A stretch of 64,000 nt of DNA from a virus (IMGVR_UViG_3300027811_000003:1-64000), one strand, 5' to 3'. Counted from the stretch's first letter, positions 1 to 47,213 are shown. Notes: generated by a model from the letters alone, not told the origin. Numbers and translations are program-made.

Positions 1-92
1 GCTTGGGGCTGGGGCTGGGGCTGGGGCTTGGGCTGGGACTAGGGCTTGGGCTGGGGCTTGGGCTTGGGCTGGGACTAGGGCTTGGGCTTGGG
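1..92 (+). repeat. Degenerate hexamer tandem repeat (GCTTGG/GCTGGG/ACTAGG)n, G-quadruplex-capable
   Basis: Runs of GGG(G) separated by 2-4 nt, directly visible. Confidence 0.85.
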
Positions 93-103
93 CAAGAGCA
101 TGA
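2..103 (+). CDS. MILF/WA-repeat family microprotein, 5'-truncated by window edge (...GAGAGAWAGTRAWAGAWAWAGTRAWAWARA*)
   Basis: Frame 2 open; TGA 101-103 overlaps the ATG of the next family member. Confidence 0.65.
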   Translation, partial: LGAGAGAGAWAGTRAWAGAWAWAGTRAWAWARA

Positions 104-258
104 TATTGTTCAACATTCCAAGGGCCAGAATTCGAATTTGGGGCCGAGCTGTGACTTGGTCTTGGGCCCGGTCTTGGGCGAGGGTATCGACATGGGGCTT
201 TACTTGGGCAAGAACGATGTCAAGGACGACCTCAAGCTTCGGTGAAATTGGGTGGTGA
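100..258 (+). CDS. MILF-family microprotein (MILFNIPRARIRIWGRAVTWSWARSWAR..., 52 aa)
   Basis: Manual translation; ATGA overlap; W/A/R-rich. Confidence 0.65.
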   Translation: MILFNIPRARIRIWGRAVTWSWARSWARVSTWGFTWARTMSRTTSSFGEIGW

Positions 259-693
259 GGGGTCGCCGAGGCCTCAAAAGTGGCCAAAAAGGGCACCCGA
301 GGGAGAAAAAATCACGGGTCGCAGCATATTGTAACGATTAAGGAAAAGGGCATTTCAAGGGTCATTTCAAGGGCTCGATAGGAGGCCTGGAAATCCTCCA
401 CGCACCTGTCCCCATCACGAGATTTCATATCCCGCGCGCGAGAGCGTTCTTTTCAGCAGACCCTTGGTGCGAGATCTAGAATCAAGTGTGTGTGTGTATG
501 CGATAGCGACGCGTTTGCTGATGCACGCTTTGACGACCTGGGGAGATGTGTGTGTTCACGCTTGCCTTTTGTGGACGTGTGTCCGTTAAGCTCTCAGCCA
601 TAGTCACTTGTGTTTATAGCTTTGACAGACGAGTTTAGTCCTTTTCTTTTCTTGCTTACGAGGACGTTGGAGTCGATCGTCGATAACTAAAAG

Positions 694-722
694 TTTACAT
701 CGAAGATGAATGAGTGTATAAT
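694..722 (+). promoter_or_regulatory. Sigma70-like promoter TTTACA-17-TATAAT
   Basis: Spacer similar to promoters at 3564 and 5405; GGAGG RBS before 752. Confidence 0.75.
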
Positions 723-751
723 CATCTCACAATGGAGTTTGGAGGAATGAA

Positions 752-967
752 ATGAACAGAGTGATCAAGATTCGAGATTACCACGGAACTGCCGCTGCCG
801 AGATGAAGAAGATCGGGTACGAGCATGACCAAGTGCTTGACTGTTCTCTGTTGTATGACGTCATCGATCGATGTGTTGAGGCTGGGTTCAACGTCGTCTT
901 GTGGACCCGGGATCCGTGCGCGATCACTGTCGGCTTGACGACGCGCAACAGCTTCTCGAGTCGATGA
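752..967 (+). CDS. Hypothetical protein
   Basis: Promoter and RBS upstream; stop overlaps MILF start at 964. Confidence 0.7.
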   Translation: MNRVIKIRDYHGTAAAEMKKIGYEHDQVLDCSLLYDVIDRCVEAGFNVVLWTRDPCAITVGLTTRNSFSSR

Positions 968-1188
968 TCATGTTCAACTGTCAAAAGAATAGGGCTGGGG
1001 CTGGGACTTGGGCTTATTCTCAGGCTCGGGCTCGGCCTGCAGCTTGTGCTAGGGCTTGGGCTTGTGCTTGGGCTGGGACTTGGGCTTGGATCACTGCTCG
1101 CGCCTGGTCTGACGCAATCTGGACTTGGTCTTCGGCTAGGGCTTGGGCTTGGGCTAGGACTAGAACATACGTTAGGACAAGACGATGA
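964..1188 (+). CDS. MILF-family microprotein (MIMFNCQKNRAGAGTWAY...AWAWARTRTYVRTRR, 74 aa)
   Basis: ATG 964 inside track ORF 901..1188; ATGA overlaps at both ends. Confidence 0.7.
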   Translation: MIMFNCQKNRAGAGTWAYSQARARPAACARAWACAWAGTWAWITARAWSDAIWTWSSARAWAWARTRTYVRTRR

Positions 1189-1337
1189 TCCTTTTCAATC
1201 ACATGAGTGTTAACGCTTATCCTTGGGCAGGCACTAAAGCTTCTTCATTCACTTCAGCCAACGCTGCTGCTAGGTCTTGGGTTTGGTCTTGGTTCAGGGT
1301 TTGGTCTTTTGCTTGGGCAAGAGCAAGACAGCGATGA
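1185..1337 (+). CDS. MILF-family microprotein (MILFNHMSVNAYPWAG...WSFAWARARQR, 50 aa)
   Basis: Manual translation; ATGA overlaps. Confidence 0.7.
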   Translation: MILFNHMSVNAYPWAGTKASSFTSANAAARSWVWSWFRVWSFAWARARQR

Positions 1338-1468
1338 TCATGTTCGATTGCCAGAAGAACAGGACTACGGTTAGAATTTGGACTGGGGCGGGTCCTCGAG
1401 CTTGGTCTCGTGGAAGTACTAGATCCTGGGCTCGTGCTTGGGCTTGGGTTATGACGTGGACAAGATGA
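1334..1468 (+). CDS. MILF-family microprotein (MIMFDCQKNRTTVRIW...AWAWVMTWTR, 44 aa)
   Basis: Manual translation; ATGA overlaps. Confidence 0.7.
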   Translation: MIMFDCQKNRTTVRIWTGAGPRAWSRGSTRSWARAWAWVMTWTR

Positions 1469-1825: not shown

Positions 1826-2308
1826 ATGAAACAATTGCTTTTCGCAGCATTACTCGCGTCTACTGGGTGTGGCCGTGTCATTCCAGCCCAGACATGGGAA
1901 ATCGTTGGATGTTCAGACTCAGACGTTGCCAGTATACACCGCTCAGCATATTCCTGGAACGAGGCAATCGCGTCAAGAGGTTTGAGCACGACAGCTACTT
2001 TGACATTCGGTGAATCATACCAGAAAGTTGTGTGCGTGTACTCAGACTCAGAACAAGTGGCCAAACAAATGGCAGCGCGTAACTTCGCTGGATGGACTGT
2101 CAATCAATATGTCTATGCTCTGCGAACTCCGACACATCCAATCTCAAATCATCAATTTCAAGCTATTGTTGTGCACGAATTCGGTCACGTGATCGGACTC
2201 GACCATTCGACAGACACCAAAGCAGTAATGTGGCCGAACAACGATTCTTCGAGTCCGATCGAACCAACGTCTACTGATGTCGATGCTTTGGAATCGATCG
2301 TTAACTAA
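1826..2308 (+). CDS. Matrixin-like (metzincin) metalloprotease, probable lipoprotein
   Basis: HEFGHVIGLDH plus Met-turn (AVMWP); signal peptide ending STGC. Confidence 0.85.
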   Translation: MKQLLFAALLASTGCGRVIPAQTWEIVGCSDSDVASIHRSAYSWNEAIASRGLSTTATLTFGESYQKVVCVYSDSEQVAKQMAARNFAGWTVNQYVYALRTPTHPISNHQFQAIVVHEFGHVIGLDHSTDTKAVMWPNNDSSSPIEPTSTDVDALESIVN

Positions 2309-2467: not shown

Positions 2468-2635
2468 ATGATCCTTTTCAACACGCCAAAGACTTTGAAT
2501 TCTGCTCGGGCTTCTGCTCGTGCTTGGACTGGAGTCGGGTCTTGGATTTGGATTAGAGCTAGAACTTGGATTGGAACAGGATCTTGGGCTTGGGCTTGTG
2601 CAAGGACCAGAGTCCGATTTGAGGAAGAACGATGA
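2468..2635 (+). CDS. MILF-family microprotein (MILFNTPKTLNSARASARAW...SWAWACARTR, 55 aa)
   Basis: Manual translation. Confidence 0.7.
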   Translation: MILFNTPKTLNSARASARAWTGVGSWIWIRARTWIGTGSWAWACARTRVRFEEER

Positions 2636-2829
2636 TCATGTTTGACGCATCGAAGTCTTGGGTGAAAACAAAAGCAAATGTTTGGGCCATGACTCGTGTA
2701 GGAGCCCCGACATGGACTTACGCGTCTACTTGGAGTCACGCGAAGACTTATGCTGAAGCTAGAGACGTTGTCGTGATCGTGCGTAAATCTTCAGCTAAGT
2801 TTTGGGCTAGAGCGAGGACGTGGATCTGA
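2632..2829 (+). CDS. MILF-family microprotein (MIMFDASKSW...FWARARTWI, 65 aa)
   Basis: Track ORF; ATGA overlap. Confidence 0.7.
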   Translation: MIMFDASKSWVKTKANVWAMTRVGAPTWTYASTWSHAKTYAEARDVVVIVRKSSAKFWARARTWI

Positions 2830-3077
2830 TTGCTATCATGTTCGATATAACGACGAATGTCGCGTGAACGTCTTGGGTGTGCCGTCACATTGAATTCATG
2901 GGGTGGTATGTTTCCTTGGTCCAATCATTTCAGTTCATCTCAGACCCAACGGAGGCCCTTCCGTCCATGGATCCACCATGGATCAATGGTGAACATTCAC
3001 TTTCACCTTCAGATTTGTCGTTTTATAATCTATCCATGAACGCGAAAGATAGAATTCTTTTCAACGCCTGCAACGTC

Positions 3078-3170
3078 ATAATCATGTTCAACCGACCGAA
3101 TGTTAATTTTGCTTGGGCTCAGGCTCAGGCTTGGGCTAGGGCTGGGGCTTGGGCTTGGGCAAGACGATGA
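3078..3170 (+). CDS. MILF-family unit with first ATG changed to ATA (IIMFNRPNVNFAWAQAQAWARAGAWAWARR)
   Basis: C-terminal part of track ORF 2877..3170; alternative ATG at 3084. Confidence 0.5.
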   Translation: MIMFNRPNVNFAWAQAQAWARAGAWAWARR

Positions 3171-3295
3171 TCATGTTCAGCTGTCAAAAGAATAGGGCTT
3201 GGGCTTGGGCTGGGGCTTGGGCTCGTGCTGGGGCTTGGGCTGGGGCTAGGGCTGGGACTTGGGCTAGGGCTAGGGCTTGGGCTAGCGTAATATAA
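3167..3295 (+). CDS. MILF-family microprotein, near-pure repeat form (MIMFSCQKNRAWAWAGAWARAGAWAGARAGTWARARAWASVI)
   Basis: Manual translation; (GCT NGG)n body. Confidence 0.7.
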   Translation: MIMFSCQKNRAWAWAGAWARAGAWAGARAGTWARARAWASVI

Positions 3296-5233: not shown

Positions 5234-5392
5234 ATGATTCTTTTCAAATGCACCAGCAGCAGGTACTGTTCTCGCTCTAGAGCATGGGCTGTTGCTGGAA
5301 ATTTTGTCTGTTCTTATTGCATGCCAGGAGGTTTAGTCCAAGCTTGGGCCGAAGCAAGATGCGAATGCAGCGTCGACATGCGTTTCAACTGA
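5234..5392 (+). CDS. MILF-family microprotein, Cys-rich (MILFKCTSSRYCSRSRAWAV...AWAEARCEC, 52 aa)
   Basis: Manual translation. Confidence 0.6.
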   Translation: MILFKCTSSRYCSRSRAWAVAGNFVCSYCMPGGLVQAWAEARCECSVDMRFN

Positions 5393-5459: not shown

Positions 5460-6050
5460 ATGAGAAAGCAAGTTCTTGCAACGGCTTTGGCTTTGACGGG
5501 TTGCTTCGACAGTTCAGGCTACACGACGTGTGCAGACCCTGTCTTCGGTCAAGTGTTCGTCGAAGACCCATCGACTTCATGCTTGAATGTGAACGTATCG
5601 ACGAAGCTGGTTCGTGATCTGATGATAGATTCTGGAATGTGGACGTCGTTCGACGCTGACGCGAAGGGAATCGAGCTCAAAGTGTGGAGCGACGTCGGAA
5701 GCGCGAAAGATCCAAACAACCTCGGCATGACTCACACTCTCTTTCCGACGAATTACACGTGGGTCGAGGAGGGCGTTGACATGATCTCTACTGTCCACGA
5801 GATGTTCCACGTGCAAGACGCGTTTCAGCTTTACTACCCGAACGTCGAGCACTGTCACGACAAGTGGGACGTCAATGGACGATTCGCGTTGTCACAGTTG
5901 TACGTCTTCACTCTCACGGGCCACGTCAGGTGTAACATCGAGTCGCCGACTACGACAAAAATGCCAAAGTTGATCGAGGAATCGCTTCGAACACACGATT
6001 GGGGACAAGTGATCGATGGATGGCGTGTTGACATGAAGACGTGTCAATGA
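5460..6050 (+). CDS. Lipoprotein with HExxH zinc-peptidase motif; paralogue of 14368..14892
   Basis: LALTGC lipobox; HEMFH...HDKWD. Confidence 0.7.
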   Translation: MRKQVLATALALTGCFDSSGYTTCADPVFGQVFVEDPSTSCLNVNVSTKLVRDLMIDSGMWTSFDADAKGIELKVWSDVGSAKDPNNLGMTHTLFPTNYTWVEEGVDMISTVHEMFHVQDAFQLYYPNVEHCHDKWDVNGRFALSQLYVFTLTGHVRCNIESPTTTKMPKLIEESLRTHDWGQVIDGWRVDMKTCQ

Positions 6051-6613: not shown

Positions 6614-6787
6614 TCACCCCCAGCACGTCGCGCAAGCCCAAGCGACTGCTCTCGGCCAGGTCATGTCTTTCGCGACTAGCACGTGAGCTTTAGCGACACG
6701 ACCGTAGCTGCAGTTGTACGCGATTGCGTAGAAGCTGTCGCCGTCGTCGAATTGATTTGGAAGCTTTGCGACGTTGAACAAGATCAT
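6614..6787 (-). CDS. MILF-family microprotein (MILFNVAKLP...WPRAVAWACATCWG)
   Basis: Internal ATG of track ORF 6614..6913; ATGA overlap with upstream ORF 6784..6951. Confidence 0.65.
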   Translation of the reverse strand: MILFNVAKLPNQFDDGDSFYAIAYNCSYGRVAKAHVLVAKDMTWPRAVAWACATCWG

Positions 6788-7000: not shown

Positions 7001-7174
7001 TCAATCTATGATGTATACGCTAGCATGAGGTGCAAACCACACACGCGAATGCGTCCACTCGCACACACGACAACCCATCACCAACTTGTACAGATCGAGA
7101 GGATGCACTAACATTTCAGAACGCGTTCCACATCGAGTCCTCGTCCAAGAAGCTTTCGTGTTGAACAGGATCAT
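7001..7174 (-). CDS. MILF-family microprotein (MILFNTKASWTRTR...)
   Basis: Last of a 7-member ATGA-chained array 7001-8095. Confidence 0.65.
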   Translation of the reverse strand: MILFNTKASWTRTRCGTRSEMLVHPLDLYKLVMGCRVCEWTHSRVWFAPHASVYIID

Positions 7175-7332
7175 TTTGCCCTCGTCCACGTTCGAGCCTT
7201 AGCGTTAGTCCAAACGCCAATCTGTGCCCAAGCGCAAGCGTGAGCGTTAGCCCAAACCCAAGCCAAAGACCCAGCCCAAGCGATTGCAGTGCTCGTCCCG
7301 ACTCTACTAAACGTGCAAACGAACATGGTCAT
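7171..7332 (-). CDS. MILF-family microprotein (MTMFVCTFSR...AWVWANAHACAWAQ...WTRAK)
   Basis: Manual translation; ATGA overlaps. Confidence 0.7.
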   Translation of the reverse strand: MTMFVCTFSRVGTSTAIAWAGSLAWVWANAHACAWAQIGVWTNAKARTWTRAK

Positions 7333-7484
7333 TTTGACCGAGCCCCAGTTCTAGATCCAGTTTTGCTTTTCGCCCAAGCCCAAGCCACAATCTGAGATCC
7401 AAAACTCTTGTAGTAAGACGCAGTCCAAGATCTCACCAAAGGCCAAGCCCATATTCTATTCTTTTGACAGGTGAAGAGGATCAT
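7329..7484 (-). CDS. MILF-family microprotein (MILFTCQKNRIWAW...AWAWAKSK...)
   Basis: CQKNR head subtype; ATGA overlaps. Confidence 0.7.
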   Translation of the reverse strand: MILFTCQKNRIWAWPLVRSWTASYYKSFGSQIVAWAWAKSKTGSRTGARSK

Positions 7485-7627
7485 ATTCTTGCCTTCGTCC
7501 AAGCAAAAGCAAAAGACCAAGTCATCTCACGAGCCCGAAGGCCAGTTCTAACTTCGTTGTGAGCTACAGCACAAGCCGTAACTCGAGCATGTGCAATTCT
7601 TGGGCGTTGACATTTGAAAAGGATCAT
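7481..7627 (-). CDS. MILF-family microprotein (MILFKCQRPR...WSFAFAWTKARI)
   Basis: Manual translation; 147 nt. Confidence 0.7.
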   Translation of the reverse strand: MILFKCQRPRIAHARVTACAVAHNEVRTGLRAREMTWSFAFAWTKARI

Positions 7628-7770
7628 CGTCTCGCCTTAGCCCAATCCCATTCTTTGGCTTCAGCCACAGTCCTAGCCCAAGCGTAATCGTAAACACGAA
7701 TGCGAGCCCAAGCACGAACAACATTTCGTTTGAGGTTCAAAGACTTCGACGGACATTTGAACAGGATCAT
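7624..7770 (-). CDS. MILF-family microprotein (MILFKCPSK...RAWAR...WDWAKARR)
   Basis: 147 nt; ATGA overlaps. Confidence 0.7.
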   Translation of the reverse strand: MILFKCPSKSLNLKRNVVRAWARIRVYDYAWARTVAEAKEWDWAKARR

Positions 7771-7913
7771 TTTTCTCTGTACCAAGCACGAGATTTGCGC
7801 CAAGCACAATTCCAGGCCATAGTCCTAGCCAAGGCTCCCGTTAAATGTCTGACTTGAGTCAGAGTCCTAGCTCGAAAATAAATTCTAAAATTTGAACATT
7901 TGAACAGTATCAT
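7767..7913 (-). CDS. MILF-family microprotein (MILFKCSNFR...AWNCAWRKSRAWYREK)
   Basis: Manual translation; 147 nt. Confidence 0.7.
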   Translation of the reverse strand: MILFKCSNFRIYFRARTLTQVRHLTGALARTMAWNCAWRKSRAWYREK

Positions 7914-8095
7914 TTTGACAGAATTGCCTGAAAACTTCTGGCACGAGAACGAGCATCAGTCACAGCCCAAGACCTAGCGCAAGACCATCCTCCCGACATG
8001 TCAAGCGGCTCGATCGGCCAAGTCAACGGAGCGCTCGGCCAAGTCAAAACACGTACGTTTGACGGCGTTCTGCTCAGACGAACGAAGAGAATCAC
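7910..8095 (-). CDS. MILF-family microprotein (GTG start; MILFVRLSR...ARSWAV...)
   Basis: Track ORF. Confidence 0.65.
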   Translation of the reverse strand: MILFVRLSRTPSNVRVLTWPSAPLTWPIEPLDMSGGWSCARSWAVTDARSRARSFQAILSK

Positions 8096-8169
8096 TGAAA
8101 ATTCCTAACCATGGTGACCATCATCCTTGTGATTTTCGTTCACCACACACCCAACGGGGAGACTGAGAT
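8091..8169. repeat. 79-bp diverged direct repeat, copy 1 (copy 2 at 9109-9187)
   Basis: ATCACTGAAAATTCCTA.CCATGGT.ACCATCATCCT...GACTGAGAT in both. Confidence 0.8.
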
Positions 8170-8614
8170 AATACTCAAGCACCGCCTTGGCTCTCTCTTT
8201 TAACCTGATCCTCCACTCGCTGTCGCCCCATCCGTCGATTATACCACCGAAGTTGCTGGAATAATAGCCAACGCACAAGCTTTTGTAAGCTTTCTTTCCC
8301 TTGAACTTCGTCACGTATCTCTCGTCACCATTAGTAACGAACACGTCTGTCACATCTGGAACAAAATCAACTAGTTGTGTGGCAGTCAAATCCCACACTT
8401 CGTCGTCTAGACGAACCCAACAGTGTGCCACGTCGTAGCTATCTTCTTCGGTGAAGTCGCCTTCTTCGTAGCAATCAACCTTGTCGATCATCTGAGCGAA
8501 CACCATCGACACGTCACCGCAAGCTCCTTCCAAGTCTTCGTCTGAAGCGTTTCCAGCGTCTCCTAAGACGACAAGTTGTTCAGCTGCACGTCTAACGGCT
8601 TTGGCGACGACCAT
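8105..8614 (-). CDS. Putative transglutaminase-like (Cys-His-Asp) protease
   Basis: GACGDVS...AHCWV...WDLTATQ; similar to 36548..36967. Confidence 0.55.
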   Translation of the reverse strand: MVVAKAVRRAAEQLVVLGDAGNASDEDLEGACGDVSMVFAQMIDKVDCYEEGDFTEEDSYDVAHCWVRLDDEVWDLTATQLVDFVPDVTDVFVTNGDERYVTKFKGKKAYKSLCVGYYSSNFGGIIDGWGDSEWRIRLKERAKAVLEYYLSLPVGCVVNENHKDDGHHG

Positions 8615-8647: not shown

Positions 8648-8818
8648 CTAAACGTTGTAATTTCTGATCTTGGTCCAGACGTTAGCTCGATCCCAAGATC
8701 TATTTCTATAGCTGAACCAAGCTCTAGCTTTGATCCACGCACTGATCAGAGTTCCAGACTTGGCCCAGGTCCTAGCACTCATGCAGCCTTTTGCTACGTG
8801 ACTAAACAAGATCGTCAT
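8648..8818 (-). CDS. MILF-family microprotein (MTILFSHVAK...ARAWFSY...)
   Basis: Manual translation. Confidence 0.65.
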   Translation of the reverse strand: MTILFSHVAKGCMSARTWAKSGTLISAWIKARAWFSYRNRSWDRANVWTKIRNYNV

Positions 8819-8988
8819 CTCGCTCTAAACCAAGCCCAAGCCATAGACCAAGTTATAGTTCTAGTAAAAGTTTCGACTTTCGTCCAAGACCCGTACACGA
8901 CTTGATGAGAAGTTTTAGCTTGAACCATGAACCGTGGCCACTGTGGAATCAACGGCCACGACTTTGTTTGTTTAAAAACAATCGTCAT
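8815..8988 (-). CDS. MILF-family microprotein (MTIVFKQTKSW...WSMAWAWFRAR)
   Basis: Manual translation; ATGA overlaps. Confidence 0.65.
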   Translation of the reverse strand: MTIVFKQTKSWPLIPQWPRFMVQAKTSHQVVYGSWTKVETFTRTITWSMAWAWFRAR

Positions 8989-9113
8989 GTTCTAGCCCGA
9001 GCTCCAGAACAAAACCAAACGCTTGTCATAGCTCTAGCTTTAGCTCTCGTCCCTACCCAAGCTCGCGCCCAAGGATTAATAGTCCTATTCTTTTGACAGT
9101 TGAACAAGATCAC
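8985..9113 (-). CDS. MILF-family microprotein (GTG start; MILFNCQKNRTINPWARAW...)
   Basis: CQKNR head subtype. Confidence 0.7.
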   Translation of the reverse strand: MILFNCQKNRTINPWARAWVGTRAKARAMTSVWFCSGARART

Positions 9114-9187
9114 TGAAAATTCCTAGCCATGGTAACCATCATCCTGGCATTTTTCGCTTGGCCACGACCCAACCGTGTGACTGAGAT
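9109..9187. repeat. 79-bp diverged direct repeat, copy 2
   Basis: Colinear with 8091-8169. Confidence 0.8.
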
Positions 9188-9391: not shown

Positions 9392-9991
9392 TCACTTCTC
9401 TGCAGTCAGGATCCCAGTGATGCCGTGCAGAAAGACCTGAACGTCGCAGACCTTGAAGTGGTCAGAACCCTCGGAGTTTCCAGAGAGAACCGCCGCGAAT
9501 TGATGGTTCTCGATGTTGTTGACCATCGCAGCTTTCGTGACCTTGAGCGTGAACGAACCGATGTTATCGAGAATCCCACGGAACTCGTGAGTGACGGTGC
9601 AGATGTGCACGACAGTTCCAGGCTTCATCCATCCGTTGGAAGCGTCGATGCACTTGCACTCAGGGATCTCACCGACAACGTTGTGACACACGGTGTAGAC
9701 GCAACCACCGATCGGCACGAAAGCCCACTCACCGCCCGGCTCCTCGAGCACGCCCTTCACCTCGCCAGAGGCAAAATACTTGCTCGCCTTGTGGTTCACG
9801 TTCTCGTTGTCAGCCGTCCAGACGATGGTCGGCTTGTGAACGATGAAGTGGTCGACGCACACTGCGACGAGAAGTCCTCGGAAAGCCCGAGTGGCCGTGT
9901 AGAACGAATACACGTACCCAGGCTTGAACTCGTTCGTCTCGACCGCCAGGTCTGCTGCGACAGCACGTCTCTGATCAAGTTGCTTCGACAT
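9392..9991 (-). CDS. Hypothetical protein with two internal repeats (KPG..Y/H...T.T..FRG.L)
   Basis: Promoter 10021-10042 and AAAGGAG RBS; internal duplication visible. Confidence 0.75.
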   Translation of the reverse strand: MSKQLDQRRAVAADLAVETNEFKPGYVYSFYTATRAFRGLLVAVCVDHFIVHKPTIVWTADNENVNHKASKYFASGEVKGVLEEPGGEWAFVPIGGCVYTVCHNVVGEIPECKCIDASNGWMKPGTVVHICTVTHEFRGILDNIGSFTLKVTKAAMVNNIENHQFAAVLSGNSEGSDHFKVCDVQVFLHGITGILTAEK

Positions 9992-11032: not shown

Positions 11033-11194
11033 CTATCTCCAATCAGCCTTAGCTGAAGCAAAAGTGCTAGCCAAAATGCGACGTGTAACTTTAGCGTGAG
11101 CAGTGGCACGATTCCATTTCATATGACCAACGAACGTATGAGCTCTAGCCCAAGGCCAGATGAGAAATCTGTTAGTAGTCAAATGAAATAACAT
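11033..11194 (-). CDS. MILF-family microprotein (MLFHLTTNRFLIWPWARAH...)
   Basis: Manual translation; starts 3 nt after tRNA 3' end. Confidence 0.55.
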   Translation of the reverse strand: MLFHLTTNRFLIWPWARAHTFVGHMKWNRATAHAKVTRRILASTFASAKADWR

Positions 11195-11277: not shown

Positions 11278-13893
11278 CTACTTCACCCACAGCTGGTATT
11301 CGCCCCTCTCAAAGAAGATGCGCGGATTTGGCTCATTATCATCCACGAACGCATCTTTGACCCAGATGCCGCTGTTCCATATGGACGTCACCCGATACAT
11401 CTTCCCTACTTTGGCCTTACCGGCCCAGCCGCAATAAATCACCAAATCACCCCACCTAGTATCACTCATACTTCCCTTTCAGAAGAACCAGAGAATGAGA
11501 ATGCAGACTGCTGCCCCTGCATCAACTCTCCTGGGGACATCCGCCACATACGCTTTGACATATTTTCGTTCATATCATTATCGCTTCTAACGTCCTTGAC
11601 ACGCAGGACAATAAGGCTTGCCACGCATCGTTTGAGTGGGACGACCGCAACACATCTTGAGAAAGAAAGTGACAGGCACTCGATCTTTCCCGCTCGAGAT
11701 GTAACATCCTTCTCGAGCAACGAATTCTTGTTTGACAATCCTGTCGTCGTAAACGTTCATCATGTCAATTCATCCTCAAACTTGAGATGCGTTTGAACGT
11801 TTCCTCGACAATGAGACTAGGCATCGAAACGTCTTTACCTTTGCACATGGGAGGATACCCAAGACGTTGATGTGGAAACAGAGGAAGAGAATTCAATTTC
11901 TTTGTCACGAACTCGATCAACTCGTCTTCGGTCATTTTCGATTTCCTTGGTTGATAGAGAGATTGTACAACGAAATTGCTGAAAGTGTCACCACGGATCA
12001 AATCTAACACGAGCGTTTCTCAAAGAATGTCTCAACGTCCATGCTCCAACTTGATAAGCTCCAGACATACCGGTGAAAAAATGAATTCGTCTGTGAGCCA
12101 CAAGATGGCCGATAAACAAGATCACTTGTTTATCTCTTTTATGGACGACAATAGAATTCTAGACCTGACTTCACATATCTCGTCAAGCTCTCTTGTTCTT
12201 TGAACTCAACGCGAGCTTTCTCTAACGTGTCAGGAGAGATCCCGCCGTGGTCCTCAGACGAGGAGTACATCGCGAACAAGCTTTCGTATCTCGACTTGCA
12301 AAAAGAGAGCTTACATTCTTGCTCGGCGAGGTGCTCCTCCAAGATCTCTTTGACAGACATGTTCGCCTCGACTTCGATTCAATCTTCAGTGTGATACTTG
12401 CATAGACTGTACATGAGAATCTTGCCCACGTACCTTGTGTTGTCTGCAGCATCAAGTTCTTTCTCAAACTTGTAGACCAAACTCGTCGTATCGTCGATTC
12501 CCTCGATATTCTTGACAGAAGAAGCAAGCGCACCGACGCCAGATTTACGAAGTCGAAACAACCTGATCCCTAGAATAGACTTGAATTCAGTGTCACGAGT
12601 CGTCAACATCCAAACGTTTTTAAACATGTTCACACACCTCTTGATGCGCAACTTGTTGTTTTAGAGATCGTACAACGACGCATCTCGTGCATCTTCAGAT
12701 CGTTCCAAGGCAGGACCACCGACCTGATTTCCTTTGCTGTCGATCACGATGATCAATCCACCGCAAACTTGGTACTTCTCATCAACGACGTCCTGAGCTT
12801 CTTGTTTCGAGTTACACACAGCGAGCACGCTTAGACTAGTGAACGTGGTCGTAACGTTGTACATGGTGTCCGGATTGGCGCCGACGACGATGAGCTTATC
12901 TTTCATGTCAAAGCTCGACGTTTGAACGCTTGCGACTGTCGCCCCAAAGCTCCCAAGGCTTCATGTTCGCGTCGCGCTTCGTTGCCTCCATCTCGTCGTG
13001 AAAACGCTGCGTCACGACGTCCCATTCGATGCCAGTCATCTCGACCGCGTTCTTCATGAGGCGATCCTTCTCGGCTGGGCTGAGCGACTTTGGAACGTAG
13101 ACGAACTTCGCAGGAACCGGAACGAACTTCTTGCTCTTCATTTTGCTGCTCCTTTGTTGTTGTGAAATCATTATACAACGAAATTACTGAAATGAAAAGT
13201 GTGAGGCATAGTCCACCTCACGAGTAAGCTCCATTCTGCTAATCTAATTACGCGGTTAAGACAGCTCGAACAAAAGCTACCAACGAATGGGATCAGCATA
13301 TCGCTCTTTTCTTTGGTTCTTGTTCTTAGACGACGGCTCGTCAGCCAAAACTTCCGTGTTGTTCTTGGTAGTTCACAACACAAGAAACATTTTGTTGCCG
13401 TTGAGTATATCGTACAACGAAATTATTCTACAAGAGTCCAACTGTCGTTGATCATCTGGTACATCTTGTCAACGCCGATGTCTTCGTGATACGTGTACTT
13501 GTACGAAGCCTCAGAATACGCGTGATACCACGCAGATTTAACGTCCTCGGCTTCGAAGAAGATAGCACGTCTATCGATGCCGTCGCGAATGATCGCCATG
13601 AATTTAGACATGATTTCTCACGGTTAAACGTATTTGCCGATCTCGTTCAACACGATGTTCAACACTCGATTTCTATCGTGCACCAACATGTGCTTTACTT
13701 CGTTCAAGAGCACGAGCTCTTCGACGTCGACGTTCTTCGAATGAACGACGCGATTGTGGATGTTTTCCAGCATATCCAGCATCACGTGTTCCACCGTGTC
13801 TTCGACACAGCACTTTCCGAGATCTGACGCCATCCCAGCGAACGCCTTCGAAGCTTCACGACGAATGACCTTCTCGATTTCTTGGGGCACCAT
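11278..13893 (-). other. Block of small hypothetical genes (e.g. 13624..13893, 13423..13611, 12908..13141, 12661..12906, 12379..12651, 12139..12360, 11765..11935, 11278..11469)
   Basis: Abutting ORFs with promoter-motif copies and AAAGGA RBS. Confidence 0.6.
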
Positions 13894-13944: not shown

Positions 13945-14067
13945 TCATTTGTCAAGAATGAAATAATTCCAGCTCAAAGGAATGCCTTTTCTACGGATTC
14001 CGTGACTGTGAAACGCAGTGACGAAGGCATACGTTCCGCTAAGTCTGTTGATTGTGAACAAGATCAT
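13945..14067 (-). CDS. MILF-family microprotein (MILFTINRLSG..., 40 aa)
   Basis: Manual translation; ATGA overlap. Confidence 0.6.
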   Translation of the reverse strand: MILFTINRLSGTYAFVTAFHSHGIRRKGIPLSWNYFILDK

Positions 14068-14228
14068 AGAGAATGTACTTTAACGTATGCTCGTGCACCG
14101 TTGACGTAGCCTCTAGAAAAAGCTCTTGCAATTGCCCAAGCGGGTTTCCAAAGTCTTGGATAAAACATCCGTTTCGCACGATTTGAAAAGTCTGTCGCCA
14201 TCGTTCCTTGAACTTTAAACAAGATCAT
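14064..14228 (-). CDS. MILF-family microprotein (MILFKVQG...PAWAIARAF...)
   Basis: Internal ATG of track ORF 14064..14297. Confidence 0.65.
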   Translation of the reverse strand: MILFKVQGTMATDFSNRAKRMFYPRLWKPAWAIARAFSRGYVNGARAYVKVHSL

Positions 14229-14371
14229 CTGCTGAACGTCGACCTCGCGTGCAAGACACCCGTTCCAGTCCACGCCCAGGCATGATGCACGAACCACATT
14301 GCGTCATGCGTTATGACACGTGGTCGACGTGAAATCACAAGCAACACTTTAGGAGCACAAAATAAGATCAT
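14225..14371 (-). CDS. MILF-family microprotein (MILFCAPK...HAWAWTG...)
   Basis: ATG overlaps TGA of lipoprotein 14368..14892. Confidence 0.65.
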   Translation of the reverse strand: MILFCAPKVLLVISRRPRVITHDAMWFVHHAWAWTGTGVLHARSTFSR

Positions 14372-14892
14372 TGCTTTGCCACGATTTCGAGCCACTCGTC
14401 GATCTTAGCGTTAGCTTTCTTGAGCTCGTCAACGTGCTTTGGCAACATGTAAAAGCCGTGGCCCGTGGCGACGGCGCCCTGAGACGTCCACACCCAAAAC
14501 GCTATCAATCCCCAGTATCCGTGTGTGTCCCAATTCTCGTGATTGGCGTTCAAACGAAGAGCTGCTGCGTCTACTTGATGCAGATATTCGTGGACGGCAG
14601 ACGCACAAGACGGAGACAGCTCGATGAATCCAACGCTAGAACATCCAGCCACCCACAACCCGTTGCAATCGAAGATGTTGTCTTTGCTTACGAACACGTC
14701 TACGTTCGGCGGTTCTAATCCGACAATCTTCATCATGTCACGTGCACTTGTTATCTTGTTCGACGTCTCGACGCAGTCGATGATAGCAATGTCTTCGATG
14801 AAGATTCCATTGTCGCAGTCGTTGAAGTCGTTCTTGCTCGGACCACAAGCGAATGCAACGAACGAAAACGACGCGACGAGAAGTCGTTTCAC
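14368..14892 (-). CDS. Lipoprotein with HExxH zinc-peptidase motif
   Basis: VAFAC lipobox; HEYLH...HENWD; paralogue of 5460..6050. Confidence 0.7.
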   Translation of the reverse strand: MKRLLVASFSFVAFACGPSKNDFNDCDNGIFIEDIAIIDCVETSNKITSARDMMKIVGLEPPNVDVFVSKDNIFDCNGLWVAGCSSVGFIELSPSCASAVHEYLHQVDAAALRLNANHENWDTHGYWGLIAFWVWTSQGAVATGHGFYMLPKHVDELKKANAKIDEWLEIVAKQ

Positions 14893-16433: not shown

Positions 16434-16598
16434 TTAATGTTGTTCAATTTCGTCTACGTACACGTCGAACCAAGCTCTAGCCCAAGCGCATCCGCGCAAT
16501 CTCGTGTGTACTACACGTGATAAAATGACGCACGCTGGATGAAACGGCTTTCCAGAATACAATCCGTACGGAGGAACAGGCGATTTGAACAGGATCAT
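16434..16598 (-). CDS. MILF-family microprotein (MILFKSPVPP...CAWARAWFD...)
   Basis: Manual translation; end of 6-member array 16434-17362. Confidence 0.65.
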   Translation of the reverse strand: MILFKSPVPPYGLYSGKPFHPACVILSRVVHTRLRGCAWARAWFDVYVDEIEQH

Positions 16599-16723
16599 GT
16601 CGATTTGACTCTGACTCTAGTTTTTGTTCTAGCTTTTACCCACGCCCATCTTGCTGCCGTCCAAGCTCTAGCCATAGATTTTGCCGTGTGTCTAGCTCTG
16701 AACGTGACGAAGAACAGGATCAT
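16595..16723 (-). CDS. MILF-family microprotein (MILFFVTFRAR...ARAWTAARWAWVKAR...)
   Basis: Manual translation. Confidence 0.7.
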   Translation of the reverse strand: MILFFVTFRARHTAKSMARAWTAARWAWVKARTKTRVRVKST

Positions 16724-16903
16724 TCAGAGAGTTTCATCGCTCATCCCTCGACATGTTTTTGACCAAGCTCTCGCCTTAGCTACGTGACCCGTGATTTTAG
16801 ATCCGAAGCCAACCCAAATCCAAACGTCTGACCAATGACGAGTGCGAGCCACGACACTGAATCCTATCCTGAACCTGATGTACGGAGTCGTGAACAGTGT
16901 CAT
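16724..16903 (-). CDS. MILF-family microprotein (MTLFTTPY...KARAWSK...)
   Basis: Internal ATG of track ORF 16724..16924. Confidence 0.65.
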   Translation of the reverse strand: MTLFTTPYIRFRIGFSVVARTRHWSDVWIWVGFGSKITGHVAKARAWSKTCRGMSDETL

Positions 16904-17052
16904 CTTGTCCTTGCTATGTACCAAGCTTTGACGATTGAAAATTCTCTGGCTTTAGGCTCTGTTACGATCCAATTCCAATTGCTTGACCAAGCGTAAAAAC
17001 AAGCAGCGTTAATAATTCTCGACCTGTTATACAACGTCATGAACAGTATCAT
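16900..17052 (-). CDS. MILF-family microprotein (MILFMTLYNR...WNWIVTEPKAREFS...)
   Basis: Tandem paralogue of 17049..17204. Confidence 0.7.
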   Translation of the reverse strand: MILFMTLYNRSRIINAACFYAWSSNWNWIVTEPKAREFSIVKAWYIARTR

Positions 17053-17204
17053 CTCGTCCTTGTCTCGAACCAAGATTTGACGTATGAAAAATCTCTGGCT
17101 TTCGACTCAGTTCCGATCCAATTCCAGACTGTAGACCAAACGTGAAAACGAGCAGTGCCAGTTCTAAACTTCAATCTGTTGTACAACATCGTGAACAGGA
17201 TCAT
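17049..17204 (-). CDS. MILF-family microprotein (MILFTMLYNR...WNWIGTESKARDFS...)
   Basis: Tandem paralogue of 16900..17052. Confidence 0.7.
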   Translation of the reverse strand: MILFTMLYNRLKFRTGTARFHVWSTVWNWIGTESKARDFSYVKSWFETRTR

Positions 17205-17362
17205 CTCATCCAAGCTTCGATTTTAGTCTTGGCTCTCGACCACGGCCATCTTCCCGTTGCCCAATTTTTAGCCATGGAAAATCCACGAGGCCACAAATTC
17301 TTCCAAACTTCTGCTCTTTGACGAGTCAACGTCGAGACATACTTGCACTGAAACAGGATCAT
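17201..17362 (-). CDS. MILF-family microprotein (MILFQCKY...WPWSRAK...)
   Basis: ATG overlaps TGA of 17359..17595. Confidence 0.7.
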   Translation of the reverse strand: MILFQCKYVSTLTRQRAEVWKNLWPRGFSMAKNWATGRWPWSRAKTKIEAWMR

Positions 17363-17595
17363 TTTCTTTTCTTTCGCTTCGCGCCAGTCACGCAGAATCC
17401 GTTGGACTTCAAGAACTCGTTAGCTGCGACGTCGAGCTCCCTGTCGATCCTGTCCTTGATTCGCTGCAGGCAAGCGATGTTCTTCTTGTCCTGCTTCACG
17501 AACGGGATCGGAGCGTAGTACCCGTAATCTAGAAGCTCGTCGAAGACTGCCTTGCGACGCTCTTCAAGCTTGTCCAAGTCGTTTGGTTCGTTCAT
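17359..17595 (-). CDS. Hypothetical protein
   Basis: TATAAT upstream; phage-typical codons. Confidence 0.6.
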   Translation of the reverse strand: MNEPNDLDKLEERRKAVFDELLDYGYYAPIPFVKQDKKNIACLQRIKDRIDRELDVAANEFLKSNGFCVTGAKRKKRK

Positions 17596-17714: not shown

Positions 17715-17864
17715 TCACCGTTCTAATATGAGCATGCTAGACGAGTAGTGAACAGACATCCATCGAGACGTAGTCCACACATTGGCGACTACAAAGCCAC
17801 ACCATCTCGGTATGAAGTACGCTTCACACCGGCCGATCTGAGTTGATTGGTTAAACAGGATCAT
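17715..17864 (-). CDS. MILF-family microprotein (MILFNQSTQ...)
   Basis: Manual translation; array 17715-18344. Confidence 0.6.
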   Translation of the reverse strand: MILFNQSTQIGRCEAYFIPRWCGFVVANVWTTSRWMSVHYSSSMLILER

Positions 17865-18064
17865 GTCATTCGCTCGCTGAGACGTCTAACACGTCTGATC
17901 GGAGGTGCCCAGTCGTTTGCAGTTCTTATCGACGCGCCGCTCCTCGCGTCAGGATAGCAAGTGGCGACGCACCAAGCGTTAGCGAATCTTCTGATCACGC
18001 CGCAGCGAGGAACGAAGAACATGAATGGAGAATTTCTGGGTCGATACGAATGGAAAAGGATCAC
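17861..18064 (-). CDS. MILF-family microprotein (GTG start; MILFHSYRP...ANAWCV...)
   Basis: GTGA overlap inside track ORF 17861..18109. Confidence 0.6.
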   Translation of the reverse strand: MILFHSYRPRNSPFMFFVPRCGVIRRFANAWCVATCYPDARSGASIRTANDWAPPIRRVRRLSERMT

Positions 18065-18201
18065 TGATGAACTCGGGACAAGACTGAACCGACTCCTGAC
18101 CACGCCCAAGCGTTACGAAGGAGCCATGAGTTTTCTCTGACTTGAGAGACTCTTGACATGCAAAACAACAATCTGATGCTGGAACACTTAAACAAGATCA
18201 T
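18061..18201 (-). CDS. MILF-family microprotein (MILFKCSS...NAWAWSG...)
   Basis: Manual translation. Confidence 0.65.
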   Translation of the reverse strand: MILFKCSSIRLLFCMSRVSQVRENSWLLRNAWAWSGVGSVLSRVHQ

Positions 18202-18344
18202 TGCATTTCTCTCGCGTTTGCCCAAACCCTAGCCGAAGACCAAGTCCAGATTGCGTCAGACCAGGCGCGAGCAGTGATCCAAGCCCAAGCCCCCGTCCGA
18301 GCTCTAGCGTTAGCGCAGGCGTAACGTTGACTGAACAAGATCAT
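18198..18344 (-). CDS. MILF-family microprotein (MILFSQRY...AWAWITARAWSDAIWTWSSAR...)
   Basis: Shares 63 identical nt with 964..1188; ATG overlaps TGA of 18341..18613. Confidence 0.7.
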   Translation of the reverse strand: MILFSQRYACANARARTGAWAWITARAWSDAIWTWSSARVWANAREMQ

Positions 18345-23809: not shown

Positions 23810-23926
23810 TTCGTATCTTTCTTGTTTGTATTGCACGCCAACAGCAACGCTAGCAAAATCGTTATTCCAGTCGGAGACAACACGAACCAAACGAAAAGCA
23901 AAAGTAACATGAACGAACAAAACATG

Positions 23927-44592: not shown

Positions 44593-44593
44593 G

Positions 44594-45652
44594 TCACTCC
44601 TTGAACAATCCGGCCCAAACAGACATCGCAGAACCCAGCGTATGAAAATAATCGTCGTACTCGCTGAACTTAGGGTAATCAACAACGAAATCAGCGATGT
44701 GAAGCGCCAGCTGCTCGTAACACGACACGGGATCATTTCCAACGAGAACGAGCTTGTCGACGTGCTCCCACATAAATTCATTTACCTCTAGACCGTTAGC
44801 TTCCTTCTTGAGATTCGTAAACGGGTTTGACGCACGTTCGTGATGGATGTACGGAAGACCTGAGGTCACGATGAGGCCCAAGTGATCGACGATCTTCTTC
44901 ATGAAGATTCCCGACCATATGTCGCCGAACCTGTCGAACGGCAGCACTTCAAGATATTTCGTAGTCATGTTGTTGCCCAACGACTTGCCCATCATCAAGT
45001 GGTACGTCAAAACTGCGATCTCTCTAGAAAACGCCACGTTCATTCCGCACATCGGGAAATAAAATCCAGCTGGAATGACTTGAGTAGTAAACGAGAACTT
45101 CTCCTTAGCTGGATTGACAAGCTGAGTCGGGGCATCGTAGTCGAGAACGTTTGTCCACAGCCCGTGGTTAAGCACTGCTCGTCTTGCTCCGACATTGAAA
45201 TACGGAATCCCACGAGGTTTTACGTTACTGAGTGTGCTGTGCCACTTAGTCAATCCACCCTTCATGAACTTGAGATGCTCGTTCACGAAAGCCCTTCCAT
45301 CGTAAGTGATGCCTTCAGCTTCTGACGTGGGATAACAATCGTCGTCCAACGTGATCACGTACTTGTATCCCTGCTTCCAGGCTTCGTAATATCCGAACGA
45401 CCTCACTGTGTCTGAACGACGAGGAATGATCCAACTTGAGTCTCCCAGTTGAGCGTCTATCTCTTCCCACGAGAAATGACCCAGCTTACACGTCGCTCCT
45501 TGCAAGTTGAACGTTTTGCTATCGTTGTCCTCGACGACGAGCAAGTCGACGACGTCGAACAACTTGATCTTGTTCCAGCGTTCGATAAAATCATACAAGC
45601 ACTTCTCTCTGATCGACGGCACGACAAGACACACTTCATTGTTAGAACTCAT
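44594..45652 (-). CDS. Reversibly glycosylated polypeptide / UDP-arabinopyranose mutase (GT75) homologue
   Basis: LDDDCYP, RG.PY, HGLW...DYDAPTQL, FPMCGMNVAF, GLPYIHH..ASNPF.NLKKE all match plant RGP/UAM motifs. Confidence 0.85.
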   Translation of the reverse strand: MSSNNEVCLVVPSIREKCLYDFIERWNKIKLFDVVDLLVVEDNDSKTFNLQGATCKLGHFSWEEIDAQLGDSSWIIPRRSDTVRSFGYYEAWKQGYKYVITLDDDCYPTSEAEGITYDGRAFVNEHLKFMKGGLTKWHSTLSNVKPRGIPYFNVGARRAVLNHGLWTNVLDYDAPTQLVNPAKEKFSFTTQVIPAGFYFPMCGMNVAFSREIAVLTYHLMMGKSLGNNMTTKYLEVLPFDRFGDIWSGIFMKKIVDHLGLIVTSGLPYIHHERASNPFTNLKKEANGLEVNEFMWEHVDKLVLVGNDPVSCYEQLALHIADFVVDYPKFSEYDDYFHTLGSAMSVWAGLFKE

Positions 45653-45856
45653 TTATTCTCTTTCCTCCAACGATTTTTAGAACATGCTTCATCGCTTCAC
45701 GAAGTTCAAACGGACCGTCACGTCCCTCGTCGCGGTTAACAAACCACACGCCGTCCACGAAACTAATGTCAGCCACCTTGCTCTGTAAGGCTGAACCAGT
45801 GACAGAGTTGTCGTGACACGACATGTTGCCGTATCCGTCTTCGATCCAGTTAACTA

Positions 45857-46576
45857 TCATGACTTCTTCTCCCACAGTGCAGGGTGTCCGTTGTACGGTG
45901 ACTTGAGTCCTCGAAGCTTCCAATACCTCTCGAAACCGTTAGCACGCAGTATCGCGTTGAACGGACGCTTGGCGTTGTCACGTGGAACGTCTCTTCCCTC
46001 GAGAGTGTACACGTCGAAGTGACCTGGACTGACGATTCCAAAAGTGCTAGCGTCGAGATATTGCTTCGGCTTGACGACGTCGAGCAACTCTTGAATTCCC
46101 TTGAATGGATCCTTGATGTGCTCGAACGTCTCCTGAGCGAGCAACAGATCGCAGTCACGCTCGATCTTGTCGACGACCTTGACGTTCGACAAGTTCAGAC
46201 GTCTAGCCAGCTCTGACGCCGCGTCACGTTGCTTCGGAGCGATGTTGTGTGTGACGCATTCAGCGTCAGGAAACACCGTGGCAAGCAAACACGCAGACAT
46301 ACCGATCCCGCCGCAGTAGTCGAACACTCGCTTCGGTTTCAGCAACAAGTCGTGCTTGACGCAGTACTCGACGTCAGACCAGCTGCGAACTGTCCACGAG
46401 TTCAACGCGAGGTACATGTAGTCTGGATGATCGTAGAAGCTAAAGTCTGTCTGACCAGAGCCGTCCCACACTTTCTGAAACTCTTGTTCCTTGGCGACGA
46501 TCTCTTCCTTCGTCGGCACCTTTCCCAACACGATGTCAGAAGCGATCGCGTAAATGTTCTTACAACGTTTGTTCAT
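45857..46576 (-). CDS. Class I SAM-dependent methyltransferase
   Basis: VFDYCGGIG; ETFEHIKDP. Confidence 0.75.
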   Translation of the reverse strand: MNKRCKNIYAIASDIVLGKVPTKEEIVAKEQEFQKVWDGSGQTDFSFYDHPDYMYLALNSWTVRSWSDVEYCVKHDLLLKPKRVFDYCGGIGMSACLLATVFPDAECVTHNIAPKQRDAASELARRLNLSNVKVVDKIERDCDLLLAQETFEHIKDPFKGIQELLDVVKPKQYLDASTFGIVSPGHFDVYTLEGRDVPRDNAKRPFNAILRANGFERYWKLRGLKSPYNGHPALWEKKS

Positions 46577-46803
46577 ATCAAACTCCTCGTGAGTTTTGAA
46601 AAAATCAAAAATCTAGCCCACGCTAGATACGCAGCTGAACTGCCAGGTAAGATAAAAAAGTGACTGTATGCTTCTGCGCGAGCACGTTTGTCGTAACGAT
46701 TTACACCGTCATGATAACAACAGTTTATCACAGCAGCCTCATTACGACGAGTTCCTGAACGAAGTGTACAAGCTTTGAGAGTTGCAAATAATACGACATT
46801 CAT
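46573..46803 (-). CDS. Divergent MILF-family microprotein (MNVVLFATLK...YDKRARAEA...AWAR)
   Basis: Paralogue of 47025..47213. Confidence 0.55.
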   Translation of the reverse strand: MNVVLFATLKACTLRSGTRRNEAAVINCCYHDGVNRYDKRARAEAYSHFFILPGSSAAYLAWARFLIFSKLTRSLI

Positions 46804-46812
46804 TTCGTCGTT

Positions 46813-47028
46813 CTAAACATTCGCTTGTCTACGACCATCATACCACGCACCAACAGAAAAAGGTATTGAACGATTGCCAATTCTTCCTGCGTGGCAATAA
46901 GCGTGAGCCCACGGGATCCTATTAAACATCTGAATACTGCTTGCTCTTGAATGCACGTCCATCTCGTTGACGCGTGAAGCGTTTGGATACGCGATCGGTC
47001 TGCGCAAAATGTGAACGAACAGTGTCAT
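46813..47028 (-). CDS. Divergent MILF-family microprotein (MTLFVHIL...PWAHAY...)
   Basis: ATGA overlap with 47025..47213. Confidence 0.55.
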   Translation of the reverse strand: MTLFVHILRRPIAYPNASRVNEMDVHSRASSIQMFNRIPWAHAYCHAGRIGNRSIPFSVGAWYDGRRQANV

Positions 47029-47213
47029 TGTCTCACCAATACAAAATATCGTGCTGATGTAGCTGGCAACGTGTATGTGCTTTCTGCTTGTGCACGTGCT
47101 TTCTTATCGTAACAAACGACAACGTCACGATAAGAAACAACGAAGTTTTCGTGATAAACGTGACGCGTTATTGCACGAAGTGTGCAAGTTTTAAGAATTA
47201 CAAACAATATCAT
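47025..47213 (-). CDS. MILF-family microprotein (MILFVILK...YDKKARAQA...)
   Basis: ATG overlaps TGA of dnaE-C. Confidence 0.6.
   Translation of the reverse strand: MILFVILKTCTLRAITRHVYHENFVVSYRDVVVCYDKKARAQAESTYTLPATSARYFVLVRQ

Follow-up and report, generated by a model that had tools for sequence, protein, structure and literature searches.

The first 64,000 bases of the IMG/VR virus record IMGVR_UViG_3300027811_000003 (113,289 bp; CheckV completeness of approximately 55%), hereafter the window, contain many very short open reading frames (ORFs) that begin with the residues MILF and stand in tandem arrays. Are these MILF units genes, and if so, what could their products do? The source phage, which is uncultured, has a genome of roughly 200 kb and a T4-type head, and the units lie in its early/replication half. 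Gene callers and family databases miss them, yet this one family fills 6,227 bases, or approximately 5.5% of the 113-kb record. The original prediction had described about 40 hypervariable genes that would together constitute a diversifying peptide library.

Coding evidence for the MILF units

The family comprises 39 intact ORFs of 37 to 74 amino acids (aa), 36 of them with strict heads and 3 with variant heads (MTILF, MTIVF, and MLFH); one further unit is cut by the contig end (2-103) and two more heads have decayed (3053-3170) (Table 1). An ORF scan for a start codon followed by [I/T], [L/M/I/V], and F yielded 50 ORFs in the record, and the real members among them are all located on the transcribed strand between positions 100 and 47,213. 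The record contains 49 instances of the head pattern RTGAY-HHT-NTT-Y, compared with 11 ± 3 in Markov shuffles. A profile of the units, a check that the original prediction had proposed, retrieved 40 ORF segments, all between 2 and 47,216 and all on the expected strand and in the expected frame, and none in the other 66 kb; this profile was trained on the same units and its search is a specificity control only. Both the scan and the profile confirmed that the units always lie on the locally transcribed strand. Every array of the original prediction is present, including those of seven, six, and four units, as are several units of exactly 147 nucleotides (nt), of which there are five with the stop codon included (7481-7627, 7624-7770, 7767-7913, 14225-14371, and 18198-18344). 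Some details required correction. The unit at 11988-12125 had been missed and 2-103 proved to be a truncated unit; near 3078, the unit at 3167-3295 is intact but 3053-3170 carries the two decayed heads; and the trio at 46573-47213 is present but Trp-poor and marginal. Within the head, positions 1 to 4 are conserved and positions 5 to 10 weakly so, and the frequent continuation of the head as xC or CQKNR was not borne out: Cys occupies position 6 in just 12 of the 39 units, and the full QKNR occurs in approximately 6.

Several features argue that the MILF units are very likely a real protein-coding family. In the head, codon positions 1 and 2 are invariant, and variation falls on third positions and on the first position of Leu, which yields synonymous variants (Ile as ATC/ATA/ATT, Leu as CTG/CTT/CTC/TTG/TTA, Phe as TTC/TTT). 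Approximately 24 of the 39 units are chained by 4-nt ATGA stop/start overlaps, and the seven consecutive ATGA joins at 7001-8095 require that every unit there has a length of 2 mod 3. As predicted, the frames stay open: all 39 are intact, whereas the five other frames of the same DNA carry 37 to 145 stops across approximately 1,950 codons. A codon-usage score trained on 42 long ORFs was best in the MILF frame for 34 of the 39 units, and TGG occurs 150 times in frame versus 18 and 38 times in the other two frames. Because the GCTTGGGC hexamer occurs almost exclusively within units, its candidacy as a Chi-like or genome-wide DNA motif was rejected. Arginine is encoded in the units mostly by AGA, the favored Arg codon of the genome, rather than by AGG, which argues that the bodies are not plain (NGG-GCT)n DNA. 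The layout of the genes predicts that the units are expressed polycistronically, with translation probably proceeding by termination-reinitiation.

These data also bear on the alternative that the arrays are noncoding DNA or RNA repeats (G-rich hexamer arrays, recombination or binding sites) whose ORFs are accidental. Openness alone proves little in pure (GCTKGG)n stretches, where none of the six frames contains a stop codon, and G3N3 runs could form quadruplexes. However, diverged units that have no hexamers keep the frame, the head, and the in-frame Trp, and the synonymous variation, the frame-specific TGG, the ATGA chaining, and the existence of relatives of other composition all speak against such repeats. 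The noncoding alternative appears already largely refuted by these sequence features, and we consider it scarcely tenable.

Peptide pattern, relatives, and selection

In composition, the units are rich in Ala (13%), Arg (11%), Ser (8%), Thr (7.5%), and Trp (7.3%, compared with 1.2% in the genome) and are strongly basic, with a median pI of 11.4 and a net charge of +1 to +11. The low-complexity bodies alternate between small residues (Ala, Ser, and Thr) and large ones, Trp and Arg among them. Trp-Trp spacings of up to 12 residues are even in 85 cases and odd in 9; spacings of 2, 4, 6, 8, and 10 account for 83 cases and odd spacings up to 11 for the 9. Small residues occupy 57 to 70% of the positions at ±1 and ±3 from Trp and approximately 20% of those at ±2. 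As judged from these patterns, the body is a period-2 arrangement with one predicted Trp/Arg face and one small-residue face, and the original description of cationic, Trp-rich bodies built on A-W/A-R holds.

Such a composition recalls indolicidin and tritrpticin, two Trp/Arg antimicrobial peptides, and raises the possibility that the MILF peptides are membrane active and disturb the host membrane from inside, with takeover, phage exclusion, or help in lysis as the outcome. Their Trp and Arg contents, net charge, and length of 37 to 74 aa would suit this role. On the other hand, they carry no signal peptide or hydrophobic segment beyond MILF, the alternation of Ala/Ser/Thr with Trp/Arg gives no clear amphipathic helix, the units are placed with early and replication genes rather than with lysis genes, and 40 copies are hard to explain in this way. 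The findings speak neither clearly for nor clearly against the membrane-active peptides or the decoys of the original prediction, and we give little credence to a membrane function.

None of the 39 members had a significant match in Pfam-A or PHROGs (best E values of 0.03 and 0.008, respectively, in each case from one member), no usable match to the units came from the ESM Atlas, and literature searches found no description of the family. The MILF family is thus not described in the libraries or literature searched, as the original prediction had supposed. In contrast, a profile search of 1.84 billion proteins together with a second search yielded 11 homologues of 48 to 74 aa (P0002-P0012) on five short JGI contigs of 1.1 to 6 kb, four of them on one 2.7-kb contig. 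Another sequence from the profile search, P0001, was rejected as a spurious, eukaryote-like repeat protein. The homologues have heads of the form MILF[N/S/H][I/T]QKN, contain 10% Trp and 15% Ala, carry a net charge of +2 to +12, and use more Lys, Ile, and Asn than the units of the window. Their short Trp-Trp spacings are even in 44 cases and odd in none. The peptide pattern thus survives a changed make-up and presumably a changed base composition, as judged from the protein sequences. Two Trp columns are conserved at 90% or more across 33 sequences aligned with MAFFT, a program that aligns Trp readily, so that this conservation is only moderately strong evidence.

Other searches for relatives returned nothing of use. 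A word-index protein search with the 39-member alignment found nothing, head patterns in IMG/VR gave chance matches or none, and a pattern of three heads in tandem matched 17 unrelated AT-rich repeats and no relative. A metagenome scan gave 6 chance matches and a scan of genome contigs gave 2. We also noted four tandem ORFs of 32 to 48 aa, approximately 150 nt apart, at L142:3372-3940 (+) and L143:1810-2377 (-) (IMG/VR 3300032020_000112 and _000111). These have MIIF starts and hydrophobic, Leu/Ile-rich bodies on contigs of approximately 30% GC, and they could represent either a further family of tandem mini-ORFs or a mere DNA repeat.

The units of the window have diverged widely from each other. 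The ratio of nonsynonymous to synonymous substitution rates (dN/dS) between the bodies of paralogues ranges from 0.18 to 1.09, mostly from 0.35 to 0.7 over 21 to 44 aligned codons, in alignments that are themselves biased toward low dN. These values indicate weak purifying selection, whereas diversification is not demonstrated. Accordingly, the term hypervariable is justified with respect to divergence (mean column identity of 15%) but not with respect to positive selection, and the notion of a diversifying library is not supported by these ratios.

Duplication has left several traces. The units at 964-1188 (+) and 18198-18344 (-), 17 kb apart, share an 89-nt patch of 92% identity (1060-1148 and 18220-18308). 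An 86-nt direct repeat of 77% identity (8084-8169 and 9102-9187) spans a MILF head and the 3′ end of gene 8105-8614; its second copy precedes the unit starting at 9113 and has no intact gene upstream, which suggests a remnant of a segmental duplication. The shared patch and the copied gene end together suggest that duplication, conversion, and decay are ongoing. Recombination across the inverted repeat formed by oppositely oriented units could invert the segment between them, which may explain the plus-strand block at 1-6.6 kb.

The units might instead be translated but largely dispensable: a small cassette copied at operon ends through slippage, unequal crossing-over, and ectopic recombination, as in T4-type hyperplastic regions, with most copies having little individual function. 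The dN/dS of 0.35 to 1.1 for many pairs, the decayed heads, the remnant of the gene end, the patch shared by opposite strands, the attachment of units to unrelated upstream genes, and their weak ribosome-binding sites are all in line with this view. Nevertheless, all 39 frames are intact with the head kept at the amino acid level, relatives of different composition retain both the Trp pattern and the head, and the share of the record given over to the units would be a high cost for a phage. Overall, we regard largely dispensable units as unlikely.

A probable wider class of phage microproteins and a possible function

A search of IMG/VR with the pattern (NGGTCT)x5 matched at least 120 contigs carrying what we call the Ser-X repeat microproteins. 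Among the matches listed, the small Ser-X ORFs contain 39% Ser, 13.5% Gly, 13% Arg, and 12% Trp; 68 of the 101 open with ATGA, and in 29 the second residue is Ile. Their heads are short and lineage specific (MITKR..., MIKKSIYKR..., MFLIN...), and their arrays reach at least 10 units by a script count and up to 14 overlapping ORFs in one locus by a cruder listing. They also have a partner: again among the matches listed, 35 of 96 upstream ORFs belong to one family of approximately 90 to 110 aa that is absent from Pfam, and a profile of this family finds 50 of 120 Ser-X loci. Literature searches found no paper on a module of this partner with (Ser-Gly/Arg/Trp)n microproteins. At L278:11474-11946 (+) (IMG/VR 3300049176_000105), a 95-aa protein of the partner type overlaps a 66-aa (Ala-Trp/Arg/Gly)n ORF, which means that an alanine type of the Ser-X module exists. 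Small (Ala-X)n ORFs were also seen in L300, L364, L369, and L388. The corresponding alanine pattern, (NGGGCT)x5, gave heterogeneous matches in IMG/VR, none of them with a MILF head.

The MILF and Ser-X microproteins have much in common. In both, a short conserved head leads into a body in which Trp, Arg, or Gly alternates with small residues; both are strongly basic, derive from NGG-containing hexamers, and are absent from Pfam. Both combine ATGA coupling with tandem arrays, and the GLGL/LVLV runs that another frame gives upstream of the Ser-X heads are also found in the window and in P0005. They differ in that the main small residue of the MILF units is Ala rather than Ser, that the MILF bodies are far more degenerate and headed by MILFNxQKNR, and that approximately 40 MILF copies, placed behind many unrelated genes, span 47 kb. 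Based on the shared features, compared by pattern, the two probably belong to the same class, and we infer that the MILF family may represent an alanine-type, highly amplified variant of a widespread, undescribed class of phage microproteins, a resemblance that had escaped the original prediction.

The best overall explanation, which we favor tentatively, is that the MILF units are a coding branch of the alanine type within this class and that their products are polyanion-binding peptides with a shared head. The peptides would be extended or disordered polycationic aromatic binders, the likeliest polyanion being RNA or the modified DNA of the phage itself, with Arg lying on phosphates and Trp stacking. 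The constant head, for which MILFNxQKNR would be the ancestral form, might be a handle that all units share, used in re-initiation and/or by one common partner. Dosage and breadth, rather than a precisely targeted library, would then be what the many diverged copies provide.

Several observations weigh against this explanation. Nucleic acid binding is deduced from peptide composition and from analogy, and as the function of the MILF peptides we consider it possible but doubtful. An AlphaFold2 model of the unit at 18198-18344 (33-row alignment) is one long helix with a predicted local distance difference test (pLDDT) score of 73; we distrust the model for a peptide of this type, and the predicted helix speaks neither for nor against an extended binder. 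The arrays follow genes that all differ from each other, and no clear copy of the Ser-X partner gene is present. The single, doubtful candidate partner, 9392-9991 (-), has E values of 0.005 to 0.007 in two half-domain matches (aa 33-67 and 134-167), an hhalign probability of 4%, and a BLASTP E value of 4e-4 over 27 aa against the L278 partner; its location is upstream of the 9113-8648 array, homologues for an alignment are lacking, and its AlphaFold2 model is unusable (pLDDT of 28). Eleven other genes nearby, the majority of them immediately upstream of arrays, gave no match to the partner profile. Furthermore, the dN/dS of approximately 0.5 in the bodies amounts to weak constraint, and some units have decayed (3053-3170). 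Finally, the Shine-Dalgarno-like sequences before the units are weaker than the AAGGAG/GGAGG sites before ordinary phage genes, so that expression of the units probably depends on coupling, and the late units of the arrays may be poorly made. Separately, a Pfam search of the genome for LSM gave no match.

A more far-reaching version of the favored explanation, which we regard as speculative and quite unlikely, would make the MILF and Ser-X peptides two branches of one very large class of phage effectors. Extended peptides with a Trp/Arg face and a small-residue face would coat or condense RNA or the sugar-modified DNA of the phage itself, with Trp stacking on sugars and bases and Arg lying on phosphates, thereby shielding it or reorganizing host RNA metabolism; the head would dock the paralogues to one partner, and the 40 copies would be an adaptation of dosage and breadth.

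The original prediction had mentioned precursors resembling ribosomally synthesized and posttranslationally modified peptides (RiPPs). In such a scheme, the head would be the leader and the Trp-rich body the core, cross-linked by the nearby radical SAM enzyme and trimmed by the FtsH-like protease. Radical SAM enzymes that cross-link Trp are known, and the unit at 19745-19858 is located between the genes for an FtsH-like and a radical SAM protein, with a four-unit array following. Yet the radical SAM protein (18845-19732 [-], 295 aa) reaches a score of just 35 bits on PF04055; among NCBIfam models it comes closest to those of viperin and MoaA, though far below the cutoffs, and it has neither a SPASM cysteine cluster nor a relative in the PDB; it may act on nucleotides rather than on peptides. 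No RiPP recognition element, YcaO, LanM, or similar family was found in approximately 30 neighboring ORFs, and most arrays are far from the radical SAM operon. RiPP leaders or followers used in enzyme recognition usually measure at least 15 aa, and the MILF head, with 4 to 10 residues, is far shorter than known leaders. The case for RiPP precursors is therefore weak, and we judge it very improbable. The neighboring FtsH-like AAA+/M41 protease (19855-21948 [-]) has an N-terminal region of approximately 250 aa of unknown kind.

If the MILF peptides are functional, they would represent a new kind of phage effector written in a two-letter (small/aromatic-cationic) code, and low-complexity dipeptide-repeat proteins would not be solely a eukaryotic matter; their apparent sister class, Ser-X, is found in well over a hundred viral contigs. 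The natural series of approximately 40 variants with one constant head offers a starting set for binding, toxicity, and head-swap work. If they are dispensable, the arrays would be a clear case of tiny genes multiplying and decaying at operon ends.

Genome setting and comparison with known systems

The window encodes a split DnaE-type polymerase, a ribonucleotide reductase, a DnaB-like helicase, a thymidylate-synthase-like protein, and four tRNAs. The genes point rightwards between 1 and 6.6 kb and leftwards throughout the rest, from 64 kb to 6.6 kb. Outside the window, the record encodes a T4-type prohead protease (101249-101851; Peptidase_S77 match at 101348-101767, 112 bits, E value of 1.5e-33), and its occurrence in one phage with a DnaE-type polymerase is an unusual combination. 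A megablast search of 12 kb against phages found no relative among isolated phages, a DnaE tblastn search gave at most 32% identity and no close relative among them, and the FtsH-like query found no relative in IMG/VR.

The genes upstream of the arrays are mutually unrelated and include those of the FtsH-like protease, an HExxH lipoprotein, the DnaE C-terminal part, and several ORFans. A conserved promoter-like motif sits ahead of operons (Table 1), often with AAGGAG and a start codon after it, and probably marks early or middle promoters of the phage; a terminator and sigma-70 scan gave results at chance level only. The arrays tend to close transcription units, with a promoter-like motif within approximately 100 nt after the last stop codon in five cases (units 5234-5392, 11033-11194, 11988-12125, 16434-16598, and 17715-17864).

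Table 1. MILF units and promoter-like motifs of the window
Feature	Position	Strand	Remarks
Partial unit and one unit	2-258	+	Partial unit 2-103 (5′ end cut by contig end; pure GCT-NGG hexamers); unit 100-258
Three units	964-1468	+	964-1188, 1185-1337, 1334-1468; ATGA-joined; first ATG overlaps stop of gene 752-967
Two units	2468-2829	+	2468-2635, 2632-2829
Two decayed heads and one unit	3053-3295	+	Heads RILFNACN (AGA for ATG) and IIMFNRPN (ATA for ATG) with A-W body ending at 3170; intact unit 3167-3295
Single unit	5234-5392	+	34 nt before TGTATAAT site at 5426
Single unit	6614-6787	-	Last gene of minus-strand block; frame open upstream to 6913
Seven units	7001-8095	-	8095-7910, 7913-7767, 7770-7624, 7627-7481, 7484-7329, 7332-7171, 7174-7001; ATGA-chained; behind gene 8105-8614
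Three units	8648-9113	-	9113-8985 (GTG start, CQKNR head), 8988-8815 (MTIVF), 8818-8648 (MTILF)
Variant unit	11033-11194	-	MLFH head; just after tRNA-Met; stop abuts promoter-like motif 11032
Weak unit	11988-12125	-	GTG start, VILFIGHL; then promoter-like motif 11983
Three units	13945-14371	-	Coupled to stop of HExxH lipoprotein gene 14368-14892
Six units	16434-17362	-	Behind gene 17359-17595; last stop abuts promoter-like motif 16437
Four units	17715-18344	-	Behind gene 18341-18613
Single unit	19745-19858	-	37 aa; ATG overlaps stop of FtsH-like gene 19855-21948
Two units	22966-23342	-	Coupled to gene 23339-23920
Three marginal units	46573-47213	-	47213-47025, 47028-46813, 46803-46573 (MNVVLF head); Trp-poor; between DnaE C-part and methyltransferase-like gene
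Promoter-like motif TGTATAAT	715, 5426	+	
Promoter-like motif TTCAGYAATTTCGTWGTAYWAT	10042, 11032, 11983, 13191, 16437, 21976, 22387, 26803, 31285	-	Nine copies; extended -10 TGTAYAAT

Four small HExxH proteins adjoin MILF arrays: 1826-2308 (+), 5460-6050 (+), 14368-14892 (-), and 22416-22913 (-). Lipoprotein-type signals are present in the first three, and in the fourth a hydrophobic segment at the N terminus takes their place; 1826-2308 is the only one with a Pfam match (matrixin M10, E value of 9e-10). They may form a second paralogous family, of exported metallopeptidases. Among the few small early genes with a family match is that of a 73-aa DUF4031 protein (22138-22359 [-], E value of 1.5e-8).

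The MILF units resemble several known systems in part. T-even internal proteins are diverse defense proteins whose sole shared feature is the conserved capsid targeting sequence (CTS) (PMC3012670). The MILF peptides share with them a constant N-terminal tag of approximately 10 residues on diverse, small, basic proteins, and the phage possesses a prohead protease of the T4 type. The units might thus be a library of antidefense or ejected internal proteins, in which the head would be a CTS-like targeting tag and the variable basic bodies would accompany the DNA or act as inhibitors of host enzymes. However, the T4 CTS ends in an (L/I)-x-E protease site, and the MILF head has no Glu and hence no such site; Glu is not frequent at positions 1 to 14 and makes up 1.8% of the units overall. 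The units are, moreover, located in replication-gene operons, and known phage inhibitors are usually folded and often acidic. The MILF family further differs in having 40 copies versus 3 and low-complexity bodies. An internal-protein library thus seems improbable.

The prochlorosin-type RiPP libraries likewise comprise numerous small paralogues that combine a conserved N terminus with an otherwise variable sequence. Prochlorosin leaders, however, have approximately 60 or more residues and are served by a dedicated maturase, whereas the MILF head is 4 to 10 residues long and no maturase was found nearby.

In T4-type hyperplastic regions, arrays of small ORFans are shuffled via promoter-early stem-loop (PeSL) cassettes. 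Likewise, the MILF arrays line up tiny genes specific to their lineage in the early part of a phage that has T4-type head genes, and they show signs of duplication, decay, and ectopic recombination. In contrast to those regions, all MILF units belong to one family and are ATGA-joined, with no intergenic promoter or stem-loop; flanking of the PeSL type was not found, as the units overlap by 4 nt and the promoter-like motif occurs only between operons.

In eukaryotes, RS/RGG domains and the C9orf72 dipeptide repeats (poly-GR and poly-GA) bind RNA and form condensates. The MILF peptides differ from them as free-standing, Trp-rich products of a bacterial virus with a conserved head, and there is no evidence of homology; what the MILF peptides share with these proteins is the period-2 repeat, encoded by hexanucleotide arrays, that pairs arginine with a small residue.

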